Shown: one piece after another, positions 1-22,034 of the stretch
How the letters are laid out: each line of letters starts with the position of its first letter
Numbering within the stretch: position 1 is the first letter of the stretch
UHGV virus genome: UHGV-1800104
Origin: a virus
Direction: 5' to 3' (one strand)
DNA: 25,476 nt
The notes under the pieces: generated by a model
Told to the model about the DNA's origin: nothing
Database searches by the model: none
The model's input: the letters and a program-made list of their open reading frames with translations, nothing else
Position numbers and translations under genes: made by a program

Positions 1-184
1 ACTGGCCTTTATAGTCCTGGGCGATCCCGAAGTTCAGGCAGATAGATTTCGCATGACCAATATGCAGATAGCCATTCGGTTCCGGCGGGAAACGGGTATG
101 TACTGTGGTGTGCTTACCACTGGCCAGATCTTCATCGATGATCTGACGAATAAAGTTAGTCGGGCGGGCTTCTGCCTCACTCAT
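1..184 (-). CDS. glnS: glutaminyl-tRNA synthetase, N-terminal 61 codons; gene continues past the window start
   Basis: Minus-strand translation from ATG at 184..182 reads [61 protein letters not shown], which I recognise as the enterobacterial GlnRS N-terminus with the class I HIGH motif. Absent from the ORF track because there is no stop inside the window. Confidence 0.9.
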
Positions 185-352
185 TGTGGATTCCTCAAAG
201 CGTAAACAACGTATAACAGCGTATGATCTTATAAGCCGAATAGGCTGACAACCACTAGTTGATTAGAAATTGCTTTCTATCGTTATTTCAATAATGAGCT
301 TTTTCATGAAGCCCACTTTTGCGCATAAGTAAATTAATGATAAATGGTACAC

Positions 353-452: not shown

Positions 453-740
453 TTATTTTGCTTCCTCAGACTCCGCTAACATGAGGATAGCATGGCGGAT
501 CATATTCAATTTGCTGCGATTATGCTTTTTACTTAACGCATCAAGTACTTGGTACTCGTATTCATTGAAACCAACACGAATAGATTTAAAATCACGTGGA
601 GCGTCCTTATCGAGCACTTTGTTGTCTTCTGGTTGCTCACCCGGCACCAAATCAGCCTTACTGGCAAAATCCTCAATTCGGCGTTCAAGATCGGGGTCTT
701 TTACTTCGGGGGCTTTTACCGATTTACGAGGCTTAATCAC
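453..740 (-). CDS. small partition partner protein (ParG/ParB-like, putative centromere-binding), 95 aa
   Basis: GTG start at 740 overlaps the last codons of the upstream ParA gene and is preceded by AAGGAG about 7 nt upstream on the coding strand. Small charged protein directly downstream of a Walker-type ParA, the usual type Ib arrangement. No specific motif recognised. Confidence 0.5.
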   Translation of the reverse strand: MIKPRKSVKAPEVKDPDLERRIEDFASKADLVPGEQPEDNKVLDKDAPRDFKSIRVGFNEYEYQVLDALSKKHNRSKLNMIRHAILMLAESEEAK

Positions 741-1374
741 TTAATAACTCCTTAACCAACATCTGGATTTCACCTTTAGCTTTCCCGTTGTCCATCTCAA
801 CAACGCCCTTCCCTTCAGCCATGCAATCGCGGTAAACCTTACGATCACGAATGATGGTTTTCAGCAACTTCAGTTGCGGATATTCAGCCAGGTACTCTTT
901 GGCCTCATTAGTTTCATTCACAACCGGATTGGATGGGGCCATTGTTAAGACTGCGAACGCCTTAATGCTAGGATTAGGCATCAGGTCCAAAGCCTCTTCA
1001 AACACTTCAACAAAGTGTGCCAGCGTGTCTAAATCTGGTTGAGATGGTCTGAATGGGACCAACACAATATCTGCAGCGGTTATGCCTGTACGCATCTCTT
1101 TGCTATCGCGCCCGGCTGTATCAACAACTACAAATTCATAACGCTTATCCAGATCGAGAAGTGTTTCTCGAATATTACCAAACTTCTGGACACAATGAAT
1201 TACAGGAGAAACCTCTGCCGTGTTACGGTCAGCTGCCCAGCGGGCAGCTGTTCCTTGCTTGTCTGCATCTAGTAACACTACATCCTTATTTGCGCGGGCA
1301 AGCTCCGCACAGATGTTTACGCTTGTGGTTGATTTTCCACAGCCACCTTTTTGGCTGACTACCAATATAATCAT
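733..1374 (-). CDS. parA: ParA/ParF-family partition ATPase (type Ib, deviant Walker A)
   Basis: MIILVVSQKGGCGKSTTSVNICAELA... carries the KGGxGK[ST] deviant Walker A at the extreme N-terminus, and LLDADKQG follows. I place the start at ATG 1374 (GAGG about 7 nt upstream) rather than the TTG at 1404 given in the ORF track. Confidence 0.85.
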   Translation of the reverse strand: MIILVVSQKGGCGKSTTSVNICAELARANKDVVLLDADKQGTAARWAADRNTAEVSPVIHCVQKFGNIRETLLDLDKRYEFVVVDTAGRDSKEMRTGITAADIVLVPFRPSQPDLDTLAHFVEVFEEALDLMPNPSIKAFAVLTMAPSNPVVNETNEAKEYLAEYPQLKLLKTIIRDRKVYRDCMAEGKGVVEMDNGKAKGEIQMLVKELLSD

Positions 1375-1661: not shown

Positions 1662-2006
1662 TCAATCAGGTAGAGAGTCAGCCAGATTGCGCGCCGACGC
1701 GCTTTTGGCAACAACTTGCTCCTTCACTGGCTCAATGGAGGCAGGGCGCTCCTCAACCGCAGCTGGTAGTTCCAGGAAGGATGCCAGCATTTTTCGGATC
1801 AGCTCCGGGTTATTGTCTTCGGTCAGCAGGGAAGCCAGTAATCCTGGAAGCCTGCTATCGACTTCTCCCAGCGCAAGCCCTGCCAACAATGCGGTTCTTG
1901 CCATATCGCTATGTTTTTTTATCTTCTCGCTCGCCGCCTTTTCATTGGCATAAGCCTCTGGGCGAAGATAAATCATCACTTTCTTACGTTCCTGAGACAT
2001 GGACAT
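1662..2006 (-). CDS. parR: ParR-like centromere-binding adaptor of a type II (ParMR) partition system
   Basis: Sits immediately downstream of parM in the same orientation. Segments RTALLAGLAL and LLASLLTED...ML match my recollection of R1 ParR (RAALTAGLAL, FLLCELLTKE). Start may be the ATG at 2006 or the one at 2000. Confidence 0.7.
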   Translation of the reverse strand: MSMSQERKKVMIYLRPEAYANEKAASEKIKKHSDMARTALLAGLALGEVDSRLPGLLASLLTEDNNPELIRKMLASFLELPAAVEERPASIEPVKEQVVAKSASARNLADSLPD

Positions 2007-2013
2007 TACCTCG

Positions 2014-2970
2014 TTAACCGATTGCTTTCAGGCCATGAACAAGAGCAAGTTGCGGGTCATCCGCCACGAAGAAACGGTCATCACGAATATTAACTTGCTC
2101 GCGAATTGCATCTGCCACCAGCGGTGCACCACCACCGATCACCATGACATGCGTATATCCTTTAAAGTCGCCAATCACATCAAGAACTCGGGTACGCAGA
2201 CGGTCAATGCTTGCGGCAATGGCCTTTTTCACATCACCAATCGCTGATGGGTCATTGATATTGTCGTTCAGATAATCTTCATCGTGGCGGTTAATAATGA
2301 GCTGATCAACATTGTAATTTGACGTTTCGGTATTGGCCCTTGCAAGTGCTTGCCTTACTTCCCTGGTGACCAGTGATACACCAAGATTCGAATCGCCAAA
2401 AACACGGGAAACTGCCGTCATTTGCCCGGCGACCATTGAAACATCAAGGGTAGTTCCACCCAAATCGATGATAAGAACAGAATGGGCAGGGTTCAGATTG
2501 TCGCACAGGCCAATTCCTGCCGGAATAGACTCCGGTCGTACCGTAACTTTCTTAATCGTGAACACATTGCCTTTATTCAGCGTGACGGGGCGCATAAGGC
2601 TGGCTTTCTTGCGCTCGATGTTATCGAGATTGTATTGCGCGTCGTCGTCGTAAAACTCCGCCAGAGGCAGCGTGACCACAATTTCTACTTCCTGCGGCTC
2701 AATACCGCTTGTCAGCAGGGCATGGTGAACAGCCAGGACGTTAAGCGGGCTGTATTGCCATTCCACGTTATTCGTCGGCAGAACATCTGGCGAGATCAAA
2801 TCATACGAATACTTCTCGTCGTCAATGACATAGTTAAACGGCTTGCCAGCACCAAATGTTGCTGACCATCCGCGCTTAAAGCTGTTAGGACTGATGTGAG
2901 TGCGAGTTTCCCCGTCGTGCTCCCACAGCATTTTGATATTGGTTGAACCATCATCGATAAAAATGCGCAT
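2014..2970 (-). CDS. parM: ParM/StbA actin-like plasmid segregation ATPase
   Basis: MRIFIDDGSTNIKMLWEHDG...HISPNSFKRGW...AVHHALLTSG...IIDLGGTTLDVS...YTHVMVIGGGA tracks R1 ParM closely along its whole length. Start placed at ATG 2970 (GGAG about 7 nt upstream) instead of 2994. Confidence 0.9.
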   Translation of the reverse strand: MRIFIDDGSTNIKMLWEHDGETRTHISPNSFKRGWSATFGAGKPFNYVIDDEKYSYDLISPDVLPTNNVEWQYSPLNVLAVHHALLTSGIEPQEVEIVVTLPLAEFYDDDAQYNLDNIERKKASLMRPVTLNKGNVFTIKKVTVRPESIPAGIGLCDNLNPAHSVLIIDLGGTTLDVSMVAGQMTAVSRVFGDSNLGVSLVTREVRQALARANTETSNYNVDQLIINRHDEDYLNDNINDPSAIGDVKKAIAASIDRLRTRVLDVIGDFKGYTHVMVIGGGAPLVADAIREQVNIRDDRFFVADDPQLALVHGLKAIG

Positions 2971-2994
2971 CTTCTTGCTCCACTTCTGAGACAC

Positions 2995-3200
2995 ATTTGA
3001 GAATCAAAATGTAATTTTAAAAGAGAAGCACCCAAAAATCCACACCAAACGAGACAAAAAAGAGCGCTTGTTGAGTTTATTTTGAGAATATCTTAATCAC
3101 CCACTGAATGATGGCCTGATAGTGAGATTTATTTGAGAATGAATTGAGAATACAAAAATATTCCGAAATTTAACTCTCCGTTTGAATGACGAAATAACAA
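2995..3200. promoter_or_regulatory. parC-like centromere/promoter region with repeated TTGAGAAT motifs, also holding the divergent promoter for the forward operon
   Basis: Exact TTGAGAAT at 2997, 3082, 3133 and 3144, with variants at 3071 and 3182. Pairs are spaced 11 bp apart (3071/3082, 3133/3144), i.e. one helical turn, as in R1 parC iterons. Confidence 0.4.
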
Positions 3201-3236
3201 AGTGATGACAATAGGAGGATAACCAGGAGGTGAAGA

Positions 3237-3521
3237 ATGAGCGCAATAGCCACCAGCGACACCCTTTGTTCTGGTCACGGAGGATTTCCGCCGCGACTGG
3301 TAGCTGAAACCGTTCCCTGGTTCACCGTTAACGGTAAGCCAGTTGTTGTAGATGGTGCCATGTTTCCCAGTCACACTGACGGTAACAGTGCACACCCAGG
3401 GGCAGCTGTATCGACGCGAGTATGGTTTTCGATAGGTGGAAAGGGAGTTGTCTGTGTAGGCGATCCGCTTTCTTGTGGTTCTGTTATCGCCAACGGCGAG
3501 GATATTTTTCAGGTTGCATAA
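3237..3521 (+). CDS. PAAR-like small protein (possible spike-tip protein), 94 aa
   Basis: Strong RBS GGAGG about 5 nt upstream. Contains NGKPVVVDG and VCVGDPLSCGSVIANG, resembling the xARVGD...C...G and G.PTV.I.G elements of PAAR proteins, although no literal PAAR tetrapeptide is present. Confidence 0.4.
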   Translation: MSAIATSDTLCSGHGGFPPRLVAETVPWFTVNGKPVVVDGAMFPSHTDGNSAHPGAAVSTRVWFSIGGKGVVCVGDPLSCGSVIANGEDIFQVA

Positions 3522-5877: not shown

Positions 5878-6035
5878 AACTCTAATGATTTGTGTTAGAA
5901 AACTAAAATTAAATCACATAACAACATGCGTGTTAATAGATTTTATTTTACTAAACCTATTGACTAAATCACAAAGTAGGTATTGTTAGCCCGTCAAAAG
6001 AACCTTCACGCCGCGCCCGAATTTAGGGCTTAACC

Positions 6036-12425: not shown

Positions 12426-13133
12426 GTGAGTATTTTCAGCAGCGTTGGTAGAACGTTGACCACCGCATTGTCATTTAACACGAAATCATTCACCAGCAAC
12501 CTCATTAGCGACATTCTTGATAAAGCCATATCAGGCGGCGGGGTAAGCGGGAATTACAGTAGCGATATTGCCTACGGGAAAAATATTGTTGCTGCCGCTA
12601 TGCGTATCCGTTACGCCCAGGGGTGGCAGTGGACCGTTGAAGTGGATGGTCTGAACGGCTTCGATATGTTCGTGAAGGATATCACCTACAGCAGTGGGAA
12701 CATCGAGACAGAAAGCAAGGTGATCGGCAGCGTAGAATTCAGCAAGCCAACCTATGTTAGCGCCGGACCGGTCACTATGACCGTGAGGGATACCGAAGAT
12801 GGCAAGATCATGGACTGGTTCAAAGAGCGTCGTTCTCGTGTAACAAATCCTGATGGAACAATAAACCTTCCTCCTGAATATCTGATGAAAATCCGTGTCT
12901 ACCGGGTGACTCAGGACGGCGGAAAAGAACTGGAAGAAGAAATGCGCGTATTTCCTACGCAACTTGGGGAAATCACACGCTCACGTGATCAGGTGTCAGA
13001 GTTCTTGTCATACCCAATCACTTTCCAGAAATACACATCCGCAGGCTCAGGTGTTTCTGCTTTGGTCAACGGTGCCGCTGGCATGGCTACAAGTGCGTTA
13101 AAGGGGGCTGTGAGTGGAGTAATCAAATTCTGA
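12426..13133 (+). CDS. hypothetical virion protein, 235 aa
   Basis: GTG start with GGAGG about 6 nt upstream; last gene of the forward block before the replicon. No family recognised. Confidence 0.5.
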   Translation: MSIFSSVGRTLTTALSFNTKSFTSNLISDILDKAISGGGVSGNYSSDIAYGKNIVAAAMRIRYAQGWQWTVEVDGLNGFDMFVKDITYSSGNIETESKVIGSVEFSKPTYVSAGPVTMTVRDTEDGKIMDWFKERRSRVTNPDGTINLPPEYLMKIRVYRVTQDGGKELEEEMRVFPTQLGEITRSRDQVSEFLSYPITFQKYTSAGSGVSALVNGAAGMATSALKGAVSGVIKF

Positions 13134-13222
13134 ATAGCTTTAATTATGTGTGCTGGAGGGTTGCTCATTTCCCGCCAGCACCCACGCCCTCAACGATAGC
13201 GGGTAGGGAAGGTAGCGCAATT

Positions 13223-13518
13223 TTGAGGGCATTTTTTACATCATCAATTCATCTGTAATGAAGGCATTCTTTACACATTTCAATAATATCAATCAGTTAA
13301 CACAGTGAATGATAATAAAAAAGCGCAATAAGAATGCACGATACGCACGATATTGGTTGAGGGCGATTTTTACATAGTCCTTACATATCAATACGTTATA
13401 TAAAAACACAACTTGCTAATAACAAGATACATGCAATTAAGATGTAAAAATTGCCCTCAATTGCCGATCGTTAAGGGCAAATTCTACACCTTGAGAGGGG
13501 TGTAAAAATTGCCCTTAA
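13223..13518. repeat. iteron array downstream of the initiator gene (about 20-bp units, mixed orientation); candidate copy-control locus
   Basis: Units matching TTGAGGGCAAATCTTACACC: direct at 13223..13242 and 13357..13376, inverted at 13441..13460, direct variant at 13471..13490, inverted at 13499..13518 (overlapping the initiator stop codon). The spacers are AT-rich. Confidence 0.7.
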
Positions 13519-14303
13519 GACTGCTGATAGGTAAATTTTATCCTGGTAACTTTGCCGCCTTCCGTCACCTCTGAGAAGACTATTTTCATTTTTGTATTTT
13601 TTTCAATCTCTGCTACAGCCTTCGTTAAAAAACTTCTCTTAAATTCGGCATACCGCTGATAGCTTTTTGGTAACCCATAACGCTCCCGCATCCATTCGAC
13701 GCCAAGTATGGCAAAGCCGCTTCCATCATCCTTCCTGTACTGGCATAAGGACTCATAAAGCCGCATAGAATAAGGATTTGTAAGGCGAGATACTTCGGTA
13801 AAATTCAGCCTTGTGAATCTCTTATCAAGCAGAGTAAAAAACGGCATGAGATATGGATTAAGATGAATAATGTAAGTCCCGCGCCGTGGTGAATAGGCAT
13901 CCTTAATCATCCAAGGATAAGACTCATAACTGTCTTCTGATTCGGTCGATTCATCAGGGTTATATATCGTAACTTTCTTCTCGCTAAGCCCTGAAATGGC
14001 CTTACGAATATCCTTGCTGGCTTCAGCAGAGGGCAAATTATACATCTCTGCATATTCGTTGACCGTCAACTCACAGGCACCTGAACCAAGAACGCCATCC
14101 TTAGAAGCATAGCGAAGTCTTCCCACCACAATAAACAACAGTCGCTTTTGGTCGCGAGTCAGGTGATAAGCAGCCTCCGTGATCTCATTGGCTTGTGCCA
14201 AACTACGACTAATAGGTGTCGCTGACTCAATCAGGCTGACGGCTTTTGCTGTTAATTCCGCTCTGTTCATAACCCTGTGTGATCCTTCAAATGGTGAGGG
14301 CAA
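13515..14303 (-). CDS. repE: RepE-like (F-plasmid RepFIA-type) iteron-binding replication initiator
   Basis: ITEAAYHLTRDQKRLLFIVV, AEASKDIRKAISGL, SYESYPWMIKDAYSPRRGTYIIHLNPYLMPFF and TNPYSMRLYESLCQYRKDDGSGF closely match F RepE as I remember it. Flanked on both sides by iterons. Start is ATG 14270 or TTG 14303, which lies inside the first iteron. Confidence 0.85.
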   Translation of the reverse strand: MPSPFEGSHRVMNRAELTAKAVSLIESATPISRSLAQANEITEAAYHLTRDQKRLLFIVVGRLRYASKDGVLGSGACELTVNEYAEMYNLPSAEASKDIRKAISGLSEKKVTIYNPDESTESEDSYESYPWMIKDAYSPRRGTYIIHLNPYLMPFFTLLDKRFTRLNFTEVSRLTNPYSMRLYESLCQYRKDDGSGFAILGVEWMRERYGLPKSYQRYAEFKRSFLTKAVAEIEKNTKMKIVFSEVTEGGKVTRIKFTYQQS

Positions 14304-14412
14304 TTTTTACATCACTTTGAGGGCAATTACTACACCTTTTGAGGGCAAATCTTACACCTTTTGAGGGCAAATCTTACACCGATCGTATTTAATTGAGGGC
14401 AAATCTTACACC
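14294..14412. repeat. five direct iterons upstream of the initiator gene (origin and autoregulation region)
   Basis: TTGAGGGCAA(A/T)T(C/T)TTACA(C/T)C units at 14294, 14317, 14339, 14361 and 14393; the first four are on an exact 22-bp period. The core TGAGGGCAA resembles the reverse complement of F iterons (TGTGACAAATTGCCCTCAG) as I recall them. Confidence 0.8.
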
Positions 14413-14439
14413 AGCCTCCTCTACAGCCCGCGCCACTAC

Positions 14440-14554
14440 TGGCTCCAGCGACGCCTAAAAAGGATCTAAAAAGGATTAAAAATGGAAAAAGGTTTATAAA
14501 AATACTCTGTGGATATGTGAGTAGCGTCACTTAAGGTGTAAAAATCACCCTCAA
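14440..14554. promoter_or_regulatory. origin-associated AT-rich tract with 11-bp CTAAAAAGGAT tandem repeats, a DnaA-box-like site and one inverted iteron
   Basis: CTAAAAAGGATCTAAAAAGGATTAAAAATGGAAAAAGG at about 14455..14492; TGTGGATAT at 14508..14516 matches 8 of 9 positions of the DnaA box (TGTGGATAA); inverted iteron GGTGTAAAAATCACCCTCAA at 14535..14554. GATC sites at 14281, 14381 and 14463. Confidence 0.55.
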
Positions 14555-14658
14555 TAATCGCTTCTCGACCGGCAAAGATCTTCATTCAATCCCCATCGCA
14601 AATCACACACTCCCTATCCTCTGGAAAATGAACAGATACCTGCTTTTCGGAGGAATAC

Positions 14659-15480
14659 TTGAACATTCCAAAATTCCCATTGCCTTCCCGTCCTGAGACA
14701 GAAATTCAGTTCCACGCCCCTACCGTGAAGGATGCGCTGAAATATTCTGACCTGAACCCGGCAGAAGATGAGGCAACTACTACAGAGTACCTTAACTCTA
14801 TGCAGGATGGTGAAATTAACGACAGTGCTAACTGGACAGTTCAGGATCGCAGAACTGCTCTTTGGTGGATATTTGTTAATTCGCGCCCCGATGCAGTAAT
14901 GACCTACTCCTATGAGTGCAGTCACTGCGGTAATACGCATCATGCAGATATTAACCTGAGCGACCTGGCCCAAACAGTAGAAATACTCACCGTACCTCCT
15001 TACGTGAAAACCAACGTACCAGTAAATGGAGTACCAACAGACTGGATACTTAAACCATTAACCGGGAAAGGCGCGGAACTCCTTGAACGAATGCGAGCGT
15101 CACTTCCTGATATGAAAAGCCCCGAATACAGTGCTGGCGTGGCACGGATGCGGATTGCTGAACTGGCTTTATGCACGGCGCTTGAAGACGATCCGGAGGA
15201 CTTCACGCAGGCCGCTAACCGACGCTTTGACATTATTGAAAGCATGGCGCTTGAAACCGAGTTTACACCGCTTGTGGCTCGCATACAGCTTATGCAAAAA
15301 GACCTACGCCACGGCCTGAAAATGTCTATTGAGAGAGGCGCAAGCCGACTGATCCTGCCTCCGCAACATTGCAAAAACGCTAAGGAGGGTGCAGATGTGA
15401 CAACCACACTGTACGTCCCCTTTCTCAATAGAGAGTTTATCCCATCAATTAGATCTGAATGGATGGCTAACCATTATTAA
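14659..15480 (+). CDS. hypothetical protein, 273 aa, upstream of the tape-measure gene; contains a CSHCGNTHH Cys/His cluster
   Basis: TTG start with GGAGG about 5 nt upstream. Its position before the tape-measure gene would suit a tail assembly chaperone, but no motif supports that. Confidence 0.5.
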   Translation: MNIPKFPLPSRPETEIQFHAPTVKDALKYSDLNPAEDEATTTEYLNSMQDGEINDSANWTVQDRRTALWWIFVNSRPDAVMTYSYECSHCGNTHHADINLSDLAQTVEILTVPPYVKTNVPVNGVPTDWILKPLTGKGAELLERMRASLPDMKSPEYSAGVARMRIAELALCTALEDDPEDFTQAANRRFDIIESMALETEFTPLVARIQLMQKDLRHGLKMSIERGASRLILPPQHCKNAKEGADVTTTLYVPFLNREFIPSIRSEWMANHY

Positions 15481-21969: not shown

Positions 21970-22034
21970 CAACGGAAATCACAAACTGAGCATACTCTCC
22001 TTTGGTTCATTGCTTATGAAGGAGCTATGTTCGT

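Follow-up and report, generated by a model that had tools for sequence, protein, structure and literature searches.

A RepE-like iteron replicon between the tub and pmgB genes of a D6-like phage-plasmid

Features of the locus

The stretch of DNA analysed here (the window) is 25,476 nt long, about 25 kb out of a roughly 92-kb element. Within its late virion gene block, and antisense to it, is a replicon cassette extending from 13165 to 14602 (Table 1). The original prediction, made from the sequence alone, placed an F-like RepE/iteron replicon inside the virion genes at this position, and it was correct in nearly every detail: the cassette sits between the tube gene and pmgB/sit, with the iteron theta layout of origin iterons, rep and control iterons that RepE homology and alignment with F ori2 bear out.

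Table 1. Coordinates of the replicon, its flanks and the partition genes in the window
Feature	Position	Strand	Basis or remark
95-aa ORF adjoining the ParA-type gene	453–740		ORF listing
Small ParA-type partition ATPase (first partition system)	733–1374	-	Pfam CbiA, ParA, MipZ
Second, actin-type partition system: StbB (1662–2000) and ParM/StbA (2014–2970)	1662–2970	-	Pfam
tub (tail tube), left flank of slot	12426–13133	+	D6 annotation: similar to P1 tub
Relic P1 RepA-type iteron (TATGTGTGCTGGAGGGTTG)	13145–13163	+	P1 PWM 18.4; 13 nt past tub stop
Possible second P1-type iteron relic, degenerate (CGTGGGTGCTGGCGGGAAA)	13168–13186	-	P1 PWM 13.0, background level
Downstream iteron 6, copy-control	13223–13244	-	PWM 23.8; conserved in pEF-4 and MINF_7C p4
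Downstream iteron 5, degenerate (AATGTGTAAAGAATGCCTTCAT)	13258–13279	-	PWM 12.2
Candidate IHF-consensus site TATCAATCAGTTA	13287–13299	+	Exact match to WATCAANNNNTTR; predicted binding
Downstream iteron 4	13357–13378	-	PWM 20.1; conserved in variants
Second candidate IHF-consensus site TATCAATACGTTA	13386–13398	+	Consensus match; predicted binding
Downstream iteron 3, inverted relative to origin iterons	13439–13460	+	PWM 27.3
Downstream iteron 2	13471–13492	-	PWM 25.0
Downstream iteron 1, inverted, overlapping rep stop codon	13497–13518	+	PWM 23.2
rep, 251-aa RepE-like initiator (WH1 + WH2)	13515–14270	-	Pfam, RepE homology, dN/dS
Iteron-like site within rep	14027–14048	-	PWM 18.5
Five direct origin iterons	14294–14414	-	Spacings 23, 22, 22, 32 bp; align with four F ori2 iterons
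Spacer rich in GC (70.7%); on the rep strand its end is AGAGGAGG	14415–14455		Composition
AT-rich tract, 19.6% GC, ~11-bp periodic T5 runs, one GATC; presumed unwinding element	14456–14506		TRF, composition
DnaA box ATATCCACA	14508–14516	-	Aligns with second DnaA box of F ori2
Outlying inverted iteron past the DnaA box	14533–14554	+	PWM 22.1
Conserved element (AAATCACACACTCCCTATCCT) between cassette and pmgB; candidate late promoter	14600–14625	+	Homology, motif
pmgB homologue, right flank of slot	14659–15480	+	D6 annotation

The initiator gene

The product of rep has both domains of the Rep_3 family of winged-helix iteron initiators, the N-terminal WH1 and the C-terminal WH2. In a Pfam search of the initiator, Rep3_N (PF01051) was found at 3.4e-29 (102.5 bits, cut-off 22.4) and Rep3_C (PF21205) at 9.8e-16 (58.2 bits, cut-off 21.1). 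Alignments to F RepE and P1 RepA had been proposed as a check. The first gave 50% identity over 228 aa (E 2e-86); the second gave a BLASTP E of 0.057, with no detectable sequence similarity. Matching PDB chains include RepE (1rep/2z9o, E about 1e-73), pi (2nra, 2e-6) and pPS10 RepA (1hkq, 6e-4), and the relatives of the initiator are plasmid initiators. Against the NCBIfam RepE equivalog model (NF010305) it scores 280.6 bits, below the cut-off of 342; F RepE scores 537.8.

The ATG at 14270 was taken as the start because it is kept in relatives and because the TTG at 14303, which would give the longest ORF extension, falls within iteron 1 and was rejected. It yields a protein of 251 aa, as in the D6 and RefSeq annotations. 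No sigma-70 promoter for rep was found on the rep strand at a threshold of at least 9/12 matches or of at least 8/12. Comparison with diverged variants gives dN/dS values for rep of 0.003–0.018, with 1 nonsynonymous against 72 synonymous differences from pEF-4 and 5 against 58 from MINF_7C p4.

Iterons

Thirteen iteron copies of ~20 bp were identified: five phased at the origin (TRF period 22), one inverted outlier, one inside rep and six downstream, the last forming the mixed-orientation array that had been predicted along with the five direct origin copies. The pattern TGTANNNNNNNCCCTYA has 11 matches in the window (0.07 expected), all between 13224 and 14553, that is, in the 1.33 kb around rep. 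A position weight matrix (PWM) derived from the five copies at the origin finds seven more at 18.5–27.3 within 13223–14554, with a best score of 13.5 elsewhere in the 25 kb. The end of the last origin iteron is 24 nt from the rep ATG, and downstream iteron 3 is a 19-nt perfect reverse complement to origin iteron 1. The outlier and the site within rep are additional to the features first noted, as are the two P1-type matches near tub; these fall inside the interval originally described, yet belong to a different iteron family.

In pEF-4 and MINF_7C p4 all 13 iterons are conserved in position and orientation, with diverged spacers between them; the outlier is also kept in L006. Downstream iteron 5, despite its low score, is a conserved island amid diverged spacers in three variants. 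The site within rep falls in the only interior 30-nt window of the gene without substitutions among three variants, and it is not kept in a 78% relative; this is no more than a weak hint.

Origin elements and flanking sites

Beyond the iterons, the AT-rich tract with 11-bp repeats (TRF period 11, 2.6 copies) and the DnaA-box-like site are where they had been predicted. The DnaA motif alone is not significant in the window (5 one-mismatch sites, 6.3 expected); TATCCAC at this position is invariant in eight aligned origins (seven related ones and F ori2). The box, TATTTTTA, the T5 runs, the GC spacer and the iterons can be aligned both with F ori2 and with four relatives that have 57–78% identical Rep proteins. 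The TATTTTTA and TTTTT runs are invariant across the relatives and F, and the GC-spacer block has an equivalent place in all of them.

In F, the operator between the iterons and repE shares 8 bp with the iterons and is the site of autorepression by RepE dimers. The roughly 65-nt F segment containing this TGTGACAA-N9-TTGTCACA inverted repeat is missing from the window and from six relatives.

On the downstream side, ATCAA..GTTA of the first candidate IHF site is invariant in three diverged variants; the IHF consensus occurs four times in the window (1.67 expected). Just outside the cassette, the conserved element upstream of pmgB contains the motif AAATCACA, which is enriched in the window (7 copies, 1.57 expected) and is also found upstream of genes 23 and R. 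P1-type late promoters (AAGTGACTT-N4-TAnnAT) were not found at sensible places within the window. Another motif, TCCCTATCC, common to the regions upstream of pmgC and pmgB, was set aside as uninformative, having only two exact copies, one of them in a terminator-like hairpin. Rfam and tRNA scans gave no matches.

The tub-pmgB slot

The genes tub and pmgB, which are 14 bp apart in P1, bound a fixed slot that the module occupies as a cassette. Sibling D6-like elements fill this slot with a cassette of the P1 RepA type. In pE2863-2 a Rep protein 84% identical to P1 RepA, with P1-type iterons, occupies it in the same orientation; tub is nearly identical to that of the window through its stop codon and slightly beyond, and homology stops at about 13160 and restarts at about 14602. 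Among PLSDB records, about 108 have the RepE-type and about 10 the P1 RepA-type cassette.

A second PWM, built from the 14 annotated P1 iterons, picks out the relic at 13145–13163, whose position equals that of the first incA-like iteron of pE2863-2; the best match elsewhere in the window scores 12.7. A search for P1-type 19-bp iteron arrays (origin, incA) gave only this clear relic and the doubtful second one, which has an intact homologue in pEF-4 (TATCCCACCAGCACACATC). The tub-side relic points to an earlier P1-type cassette that gave way to the RepE-type one. The direction of replacement is read from a single clear relic iteron.

Distribution, plasmid state and prior knowledge

By sequence, the window belongs to a D6-like phage-plasmid. 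Across the whole module its identity to phage D6 is 99.2%; it keeps the D6 gene order throughout and is 100% identical to several ~92 kb plasmids of E. coli and Salmonella with the module in the same tub-pmgB position. The replicon was found in 88 of 5,426 complete E. coli genomes, where all 100 of its locations are on plasmids, with no chromosomal copy. It was also found in 111 circular PLSDB records. It is the only replicon typed by MOB-suite on these plasmids (rep_cluster_1704). It also appears in 17 IMG/VR viral contigs and in the phage D6 genome record, which presumably derives from virion DNA. The phage-plasmid lifestyle originally proposed thus agrees with both the D6 match and the plasmid-only locations. 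The two partition systems cited in its favour are also present, one a ParA-type ATPase and the other ParM/StbA with StbB (StbA_N 1.7e-69, ParM_N 3e-55, Plasmid_stab_B 3.2e-11).

The suggestion that the replicon falls outside the known P1, N15 and SSU5 groups did not hold. The module is the plasmid-maintenance replicon of the D6-like phage-plasmids of E. coli and Salmonella, already catalogued and not new, and it is the usual one of the D6-like subgroup (P1-g2) within the P1 group. The window holds one more copy of it (orf42 or “repB”), with no material difference. The D6 record annotates the gene as a putative plasmid replication initiator, and the pYU39_89 replicon has been described as “repB associated with iteron sequences” (PMC6799933). 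In P1-g2 the replicon lies apart from the partition genes (PMC7969092). A recent survey reports that D6 repB is missing from common typing tools (bioRxiv 10.1101/2025.09.12.675607), so D6-like elements can be mistyped. PlasmidFinder “p0111”, at first considered as the replicon of D6-like elements, was rejected on the same source, in which p0111 and IncY are P1-type. For annotation, the module can simply be labelled as the maintenance replicon of a D6-like phage-plasmid that is common, being carried by 1.6% of complete E. coli genomes. Three details were not found reported in the accessible literature, the primary D6 description aside: the absence of the operator, the RepA-type siblings and the relic iteron. 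These side findings are of modest evolutionary interest and open no long-standing question.

Proposed mechanism and alternatives

The favoured reading, with a probability of about 0.9, is that 13165–14602 serves as the low-copy theta maintenance replicon of a D6-like phage-plasmid. By homology with F ori2 and RepE, initiator monomers would bind the five phased iterons by the gene and, with host DnaA at the neighbouring box, would open the AT-rich tract, where the host helicase would load. The short gap between iterons and ATG and the lack of an F-type operator suggest that the rep promoter overlaps the iterons or sits upstream of them, in which case rep would also be repressed whenever the iterons are occupied, as happens in P1; this autoregulation is proposed from spacing only. 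The six iterons downstream, together with the two IHF-consensus sites, would restrict copy number through titration and handcuffing (pairing), as would the inverted outlier. The extreme purifying selection on rep, the conserved iteron layout and the plasmid-only locations back function, and the replicon is evidently functional.

Were it instead a decaying or passenger plasmid fragment, the prophage would be kept by another replicon elsewhere in the genome. The window covers just 25 kb of the element, relic iterons of another replicon adjoin the module, and D6 has a lytic replicon of the RepL type as well (PMC6799933). This is nevertheless very improbable given the dN/dS of rep, the full conservation of the iteron layout and the lack of any other typed replicon on these plasmids. 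Siblings without the RepE-type module, moreover, have a different complete replicon in the slot, as expected of an essential maintenance slot. It is less probable still that this is mainly an origin for the lytic or induction phase. Its position inside the late virion block, antisense to it, would fit such a role, but the architecture is that of a copy-controlled iteron plasmid, with control iterons and a DnaA box, the initiator's relatives point the same way, and D6-like elements have a separate repL (PMC6799933).

The module might also be a genuine IncFIA replicon (F RepFIA), interchangeable and incompatible with F and cross-reacting with F RepE and F iterons. Identity to RepE, the same origin block structure and AAATTGCCCTCA, common to some iteron copies and F iterons, speak for this, and to that extent the label “F-like” stands. 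It does not extend to the operator and promoter segment, absent here, or to the initiator score, which is below the RepE equivalog cut-off. Nor does it extend to the iterons: on the D6 iteron PWM, those of F ori2 and incC all stay below 12 bits, and the register from TGT to GCCCTCA differs by one base. In a look at the sibling plasmids of three strains, E. coli strain ST167 was found to carry the D6-like plasmid NZ_CP093921 beside the IncFIA-typed NZ_CP093920 and NZ_CP093922, a co-occurrence that is only suggestive, as the latter two are multi-replicon. Overall, an IncFIA identity is unlikely, at odds of about the same low order as those of a passenger fragment.

With the maintenance replicon as the preferred reading, a broader one can be offered at slightly better than even odds. 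The tub-pmgB junction may be a slot dedicated to the exchange of whole iteron replicons, in which an F-RepE-type replicon displaced a P1-RepA-type one and left a relic incA-type iteron behind. The incoming replicon, of the RepE clade and without the F dimer operator, would be autoregulated via its origin iterons like P1. It would probably be compatible with both IncY and IncFIA, which would explain the predominance of the RepE-type cassette. Unrelated iteron replicons can be exchanged as cassettes within a phage late operon and leave the operon undisturbed.

Comparison with known systems

A close parallel is F RepFIA (ori2/oriS, repE, incC), where DnaA boxes, AT-rich tract, GC spacer, direct iterons, rep and downstream iterons follow in the same order and the conserved blocks align base by base. 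The iterons of both end in GCCCTCA; the left half and register of the D6 iteron differ from those of the F type, TGTGACAAATTGCCCTCAG. D6 has five origin iterons and one good DnaA box, F four and two; F has the operator/promoter segment that D6 lacks, and about 85 nt between the last iteron and the ATG. The five incC iterons of F are all inverted, whereas those downstream in D6 are of mixed orientation and accompanied by IHF-consensus sites, so the control geometry may differ. F sopABC adjoins its replicon; in D6 there is no adjacent sopABC, and the partition genes are about 10 kb off. This close but non-identical kinship to F ori2 makes a natural system for studying what determines iteron specificity and incompatibility, and whether a dimer operator is needed.

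The P1 replicon (oriR/incC, repA, incA; IncY) also serves a P1-group phage-plasmid and resembles D6 in having five origin iterons abutting rep, with the promoter annotated within them in P1, control iterons after the gene, and a DnaA box beyond an AT- and GATC-rich tract. Its initiator is unrelated in sequence, its iterons are different, and its neighbours are parAB and gene 23 instead of tub and pmgB. A precedent for exchange is found in the P1-g1 phage-plasmids, where IncY and p0111 are alternative replicases at one position (PMC7969092). There, as here, two unrelated replicon types occupy a fixed position in a conserved phage-plasmid backbone; in the present case a D6-like (P1-g2) backbone has the slot in a tail-gene operon, the alternatives are RepE-type and P1 RepA-type, and a relic iteron is present at the point of exchange.

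Identity and distribution

The replicon is an already known and annotated feature. The module is shared with Escherichia phage D6 at 99.2% identity and, at 95–100%, with about 100 plasmids from E. coli, Salmonella, and Shigella, all of them circular, non-mobilizable, and ~90 kb in size. MOB-suite types these plasmids as rep_cluster_1704 only. The cassette is found in 88 of 5,426 complete E. coli genomes, in 100 plasmid places and no chromosomal ones. This supports the phage-plasmid lifestyle proposed in the original prediction, and both of the partition systems named there were located. The suggestion that the replicon type is foreign to known phage-plasmid groups was wrong: in the D6 record, rep is orf42, “putative plasmid replication initiation, pfam01051”, between homologues of P1 tub and pmgB. 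The D6 subgroup (P1-g2) has been described as having 14 persistent genes between the replication and partition genes (PMC7969092). The refinements added here (whole-origin homology to F ori2, operator loss, cassette alternation with a relic iteron, and IHF sites) are real yet incremental.

The 5′ end of the window (1–186) lies within a phage-borne glutaminyl-tRNA synthetase gene, annotated as GlnS-like in D6. A D6-like element with this replicon is also contained in a 216-kb conjugative plasmid record, NZ_CP021720.1, typed as IncFII, rep_cluster_1418, and rep_cluster_1704, which is either a phage-plasmid/conjugative plasmid cointegrate or a misassembly.

The initiator gene

The rep ORF is on the minus strand, with its stop codon ending at 13515. 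In the mechanical ORF list it runs as far as a TTG at 14303; this start was rejected, as the codon falls within an iteron and an ATG at 14270 is kept in relatives. The ATG gives a 251-aa product, as annotated by GenBank and RefSeq in identical elements. It matches the Rep_3 initiator fold in both its halves (Rep3_N, 3.4e-29; Rep3_C, 9.8e-16). The alignments proposed originally uphold the RepE reading: crystallised F RepE sequences match at E ~1e-73, with 50% identity over 228 residues, while similarity to P1 RepA is not significant (E 0.057). Against the NCBI RepE equivalog model the protein scores 280.6 bits, under the 342-bit cut-off. Identities in PLSDB are discontinuous, with 108 records at ≥95%, one at 60–80%, and thousands of RepE genes only at ~50%; the gap is bridged by relatives from metagenomes and genomes, at 78, 71, 63, 60, and 57%. 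In IMG/VR, 17 viral contigs have a gene for the same protein.

Two of these relatives are in phage-like backbones. The 71% Rep (6001–6759 of L006, a 104-kb metagenome scaffold) has as neighbours an exonuclease, a capsid-size protein, a tail sheath, and a gp21-like gene, and the location roughly matches P1's own replicon site. The 78% Rep (6001–6756 of L004, an 87-kb contig) is near genes for an amidase endolysin, an HNH protein, DdrB-ParB, and a 2,234-aa SNF2 helicase. Phage-plasmids may be the preferred carriers of this RepE sub-clade.

Origin layout and evidence of function

All elements of the replicon layout originally described were located (see table), namely iterons, AT tract, DnaA box, rep, and a mixed downstream array. 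The ~20-bp repeat around rep is GGTGTAAGATTTGCCCTCAA on the rep strand. The degenerate pattern TGTANNNNNNNCCCTYA has 11 matches, all within 13224–14553, against 0.07 expected. With a PWM trained on the five origin copies, seven further copies in this interval score 18.5–27.3, against at most 13.5 elsewhere in the 25 kb. A consensus promoter for rep was looked for and none was located. A short imperfect palindrome, CCTTCA-AATGG-TGAGGG (14284–14300), spans the junction between the last origin iteron and the rep leader and is kept in close variants; it is not equivalent to the F operator.

Features of the replicon and its surroundings, origin elements in the direction of rep transcription
Feature	Position	Description
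Small ParA-type ATPase	733–1374	First partition system
ParM/StbA + StbB	1662–2970	Second partition system
Inverted iteron	14554–14533	First element
DnaA box	14516–14508	ATATCCACA
AT-rich tract	14506–14456	51 bp; 19.6% GC; T5 runs ~11 bp apart; TRF period 11
GC-rich spacer		41 bp; 70.7% GC; between AT tract and origin iterons
Five direct origin iterons	14414–14294	Spacings 32, 22, 22, 23 bp; TRF period 22
rep leader		23 nt; last origin iteron ends 24 nt 5′ of ATG
Iteron-like site	14027–14048	Thirteenth copy, within rep
Six downstream iterons		Mixed orientation; <300 bp past rep stop; first overlaps stop codon
IHF-consensus sites	13386–13398, 13287–13299	Exact matches; conserved like downstream iterons
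AAATCACA copies	5966–5986, 14600–14620, 21976–21996	Also at 5911, 4515, 12970, 1388
P1 RepA-type replicon	2108–3500 of pE2863-2 (L011)	tub-pmgB slot; orientation as in window; IncY-like, rep_cluster_2221

Evidence of function comes from two diverged D6-like variants, whose rep genes depart from that of the window at many synonymous and hardly any nonsynonymous sites. The comparison gave one nonsynonymous and 72 synonymous differences for pEF-4 (dN/dS 0.003), and five and 58 for MINF_7C p4 (dN/dS 0.018). In both, the 13 iteron positions occur in unchanged order and orientation. Downstream, the iterons, including a degenerate copy at 13258, are conserved islands amid freely diverged spacers. The site within rep lies in the gene's sole interior 30-nt stretch without substitution among the three variants (pairwise dS 0.47–0.98). 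The 78% relative does not conserve it, and it may have a regulatory role or be fortuitous.

By likeness to F and P1 (general knowledge of their biology and the P1 record), a mechanism can be inferred in which Rep monomers would bind the origin iterons, the AT tract would be opened with DnaA assistance, rep would be autorepressed via iteron occupancy, and the downstream iterons would control copy number.

Replicon alternation between tub and pmgB

In P1, tub and pmgB are separated by 14 bp inside one late operon, compared with 1,525 bp in the window. In about 10 D6-like plasmids, pE2863-2 (NZ_AP018804) among them, the match to the window starts only at 14603. Their Rep is 84% identical to P1 RepA, in a cassette with five P1-type origin iterons, GATC repeats, a DnaA box, and seven downstream iterons. 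The window and these siblings are near-identical across tub, 13 nt past its stop codon, and the first P1-type iteron, after which they diverge; homology rejoins at TCACACACTnCCTATCCT, 5′ of pmgB. The window has thus retained a P1-type iteron at 13145–13163, scoring 18.4 with a P1-iteron PWM (background maximum 12.7); a second relic at 13168–13186 is doubtful. Two or three P1-type iterons are kept in pEF-4, and pE2863-2 has no RepE-type relic. The tub-pmgB slot is a replicon cassette site. The most economical interpretation is that, in D6-like elements, a P1-type cassette gave way to one of RepE type. This parallels the IncY/p0111 alternation in P1-like elements (PMC7969092). No earlier report of alternation in D6-like elements was found in the literature consulted.

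The motif AAATCACA occurs seven times in the window, against 1.57 expected. Capsid gene 23, pmgB, and tail-fibre gene R are each preceded by a copy, and a hexamer (TATTGT, TATCCT, or CATACT) comes after each of these three copies at constant spacing. P1-type late promoters were searched for in the window and not found; AAATCACA could be a D6-type late promoter. With the copy at 14600, pmgB, sit, and genes further on would still be expressed even though a replicon in antisense orientation is inserted ahead of them.

Comparison with F

The 330 nt upstream of rep were aligned for the window, the two diverged variants, four of the 57–78% relatives, and F ori2. All eight origins have identical TATCCAC in the DnaA box, TATTTTTA after it, T5 runs, and iteron cores, and a GC-rich spacer is at one common position. 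At the level of sequence, this alignment shows the whole origin as homologous to F ori2, beyond a mere likeness of plan. The DnaA box is not enriched in the window as a bare motif, and is credible because its position is conserved across the aligned origins.

None of the seven D6-clade origins has the ~65-nt stretch in which F carries its repE promoter and TGTGACAA-N9-TTGTCACA operator; in them the leader directly follows the last iteron. The iteron end GCCCTCA is common to both, but the other half and the register differ, and none of the F iterons scores with the D6 profile. In one complete genome, that of strain ST167, a D6-like plasmid occurs alongside two IncFIA-typed plasmids, which suggests that the D6-type replicon is compatible with IncFIA; this falls short of proof because those plasmids are multi-replicon. 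Three defining features of RepFIA/IncFIA are lacking: the operator segment, the iteron sequence, and a score above the RepE equivalog cut-off. Taken together, the whole-origin homology and these differences argue that the replicon falls within the wider F ori2/RepE clade and works in the same way, yet is probably not RepFIA/IncFIA proper.
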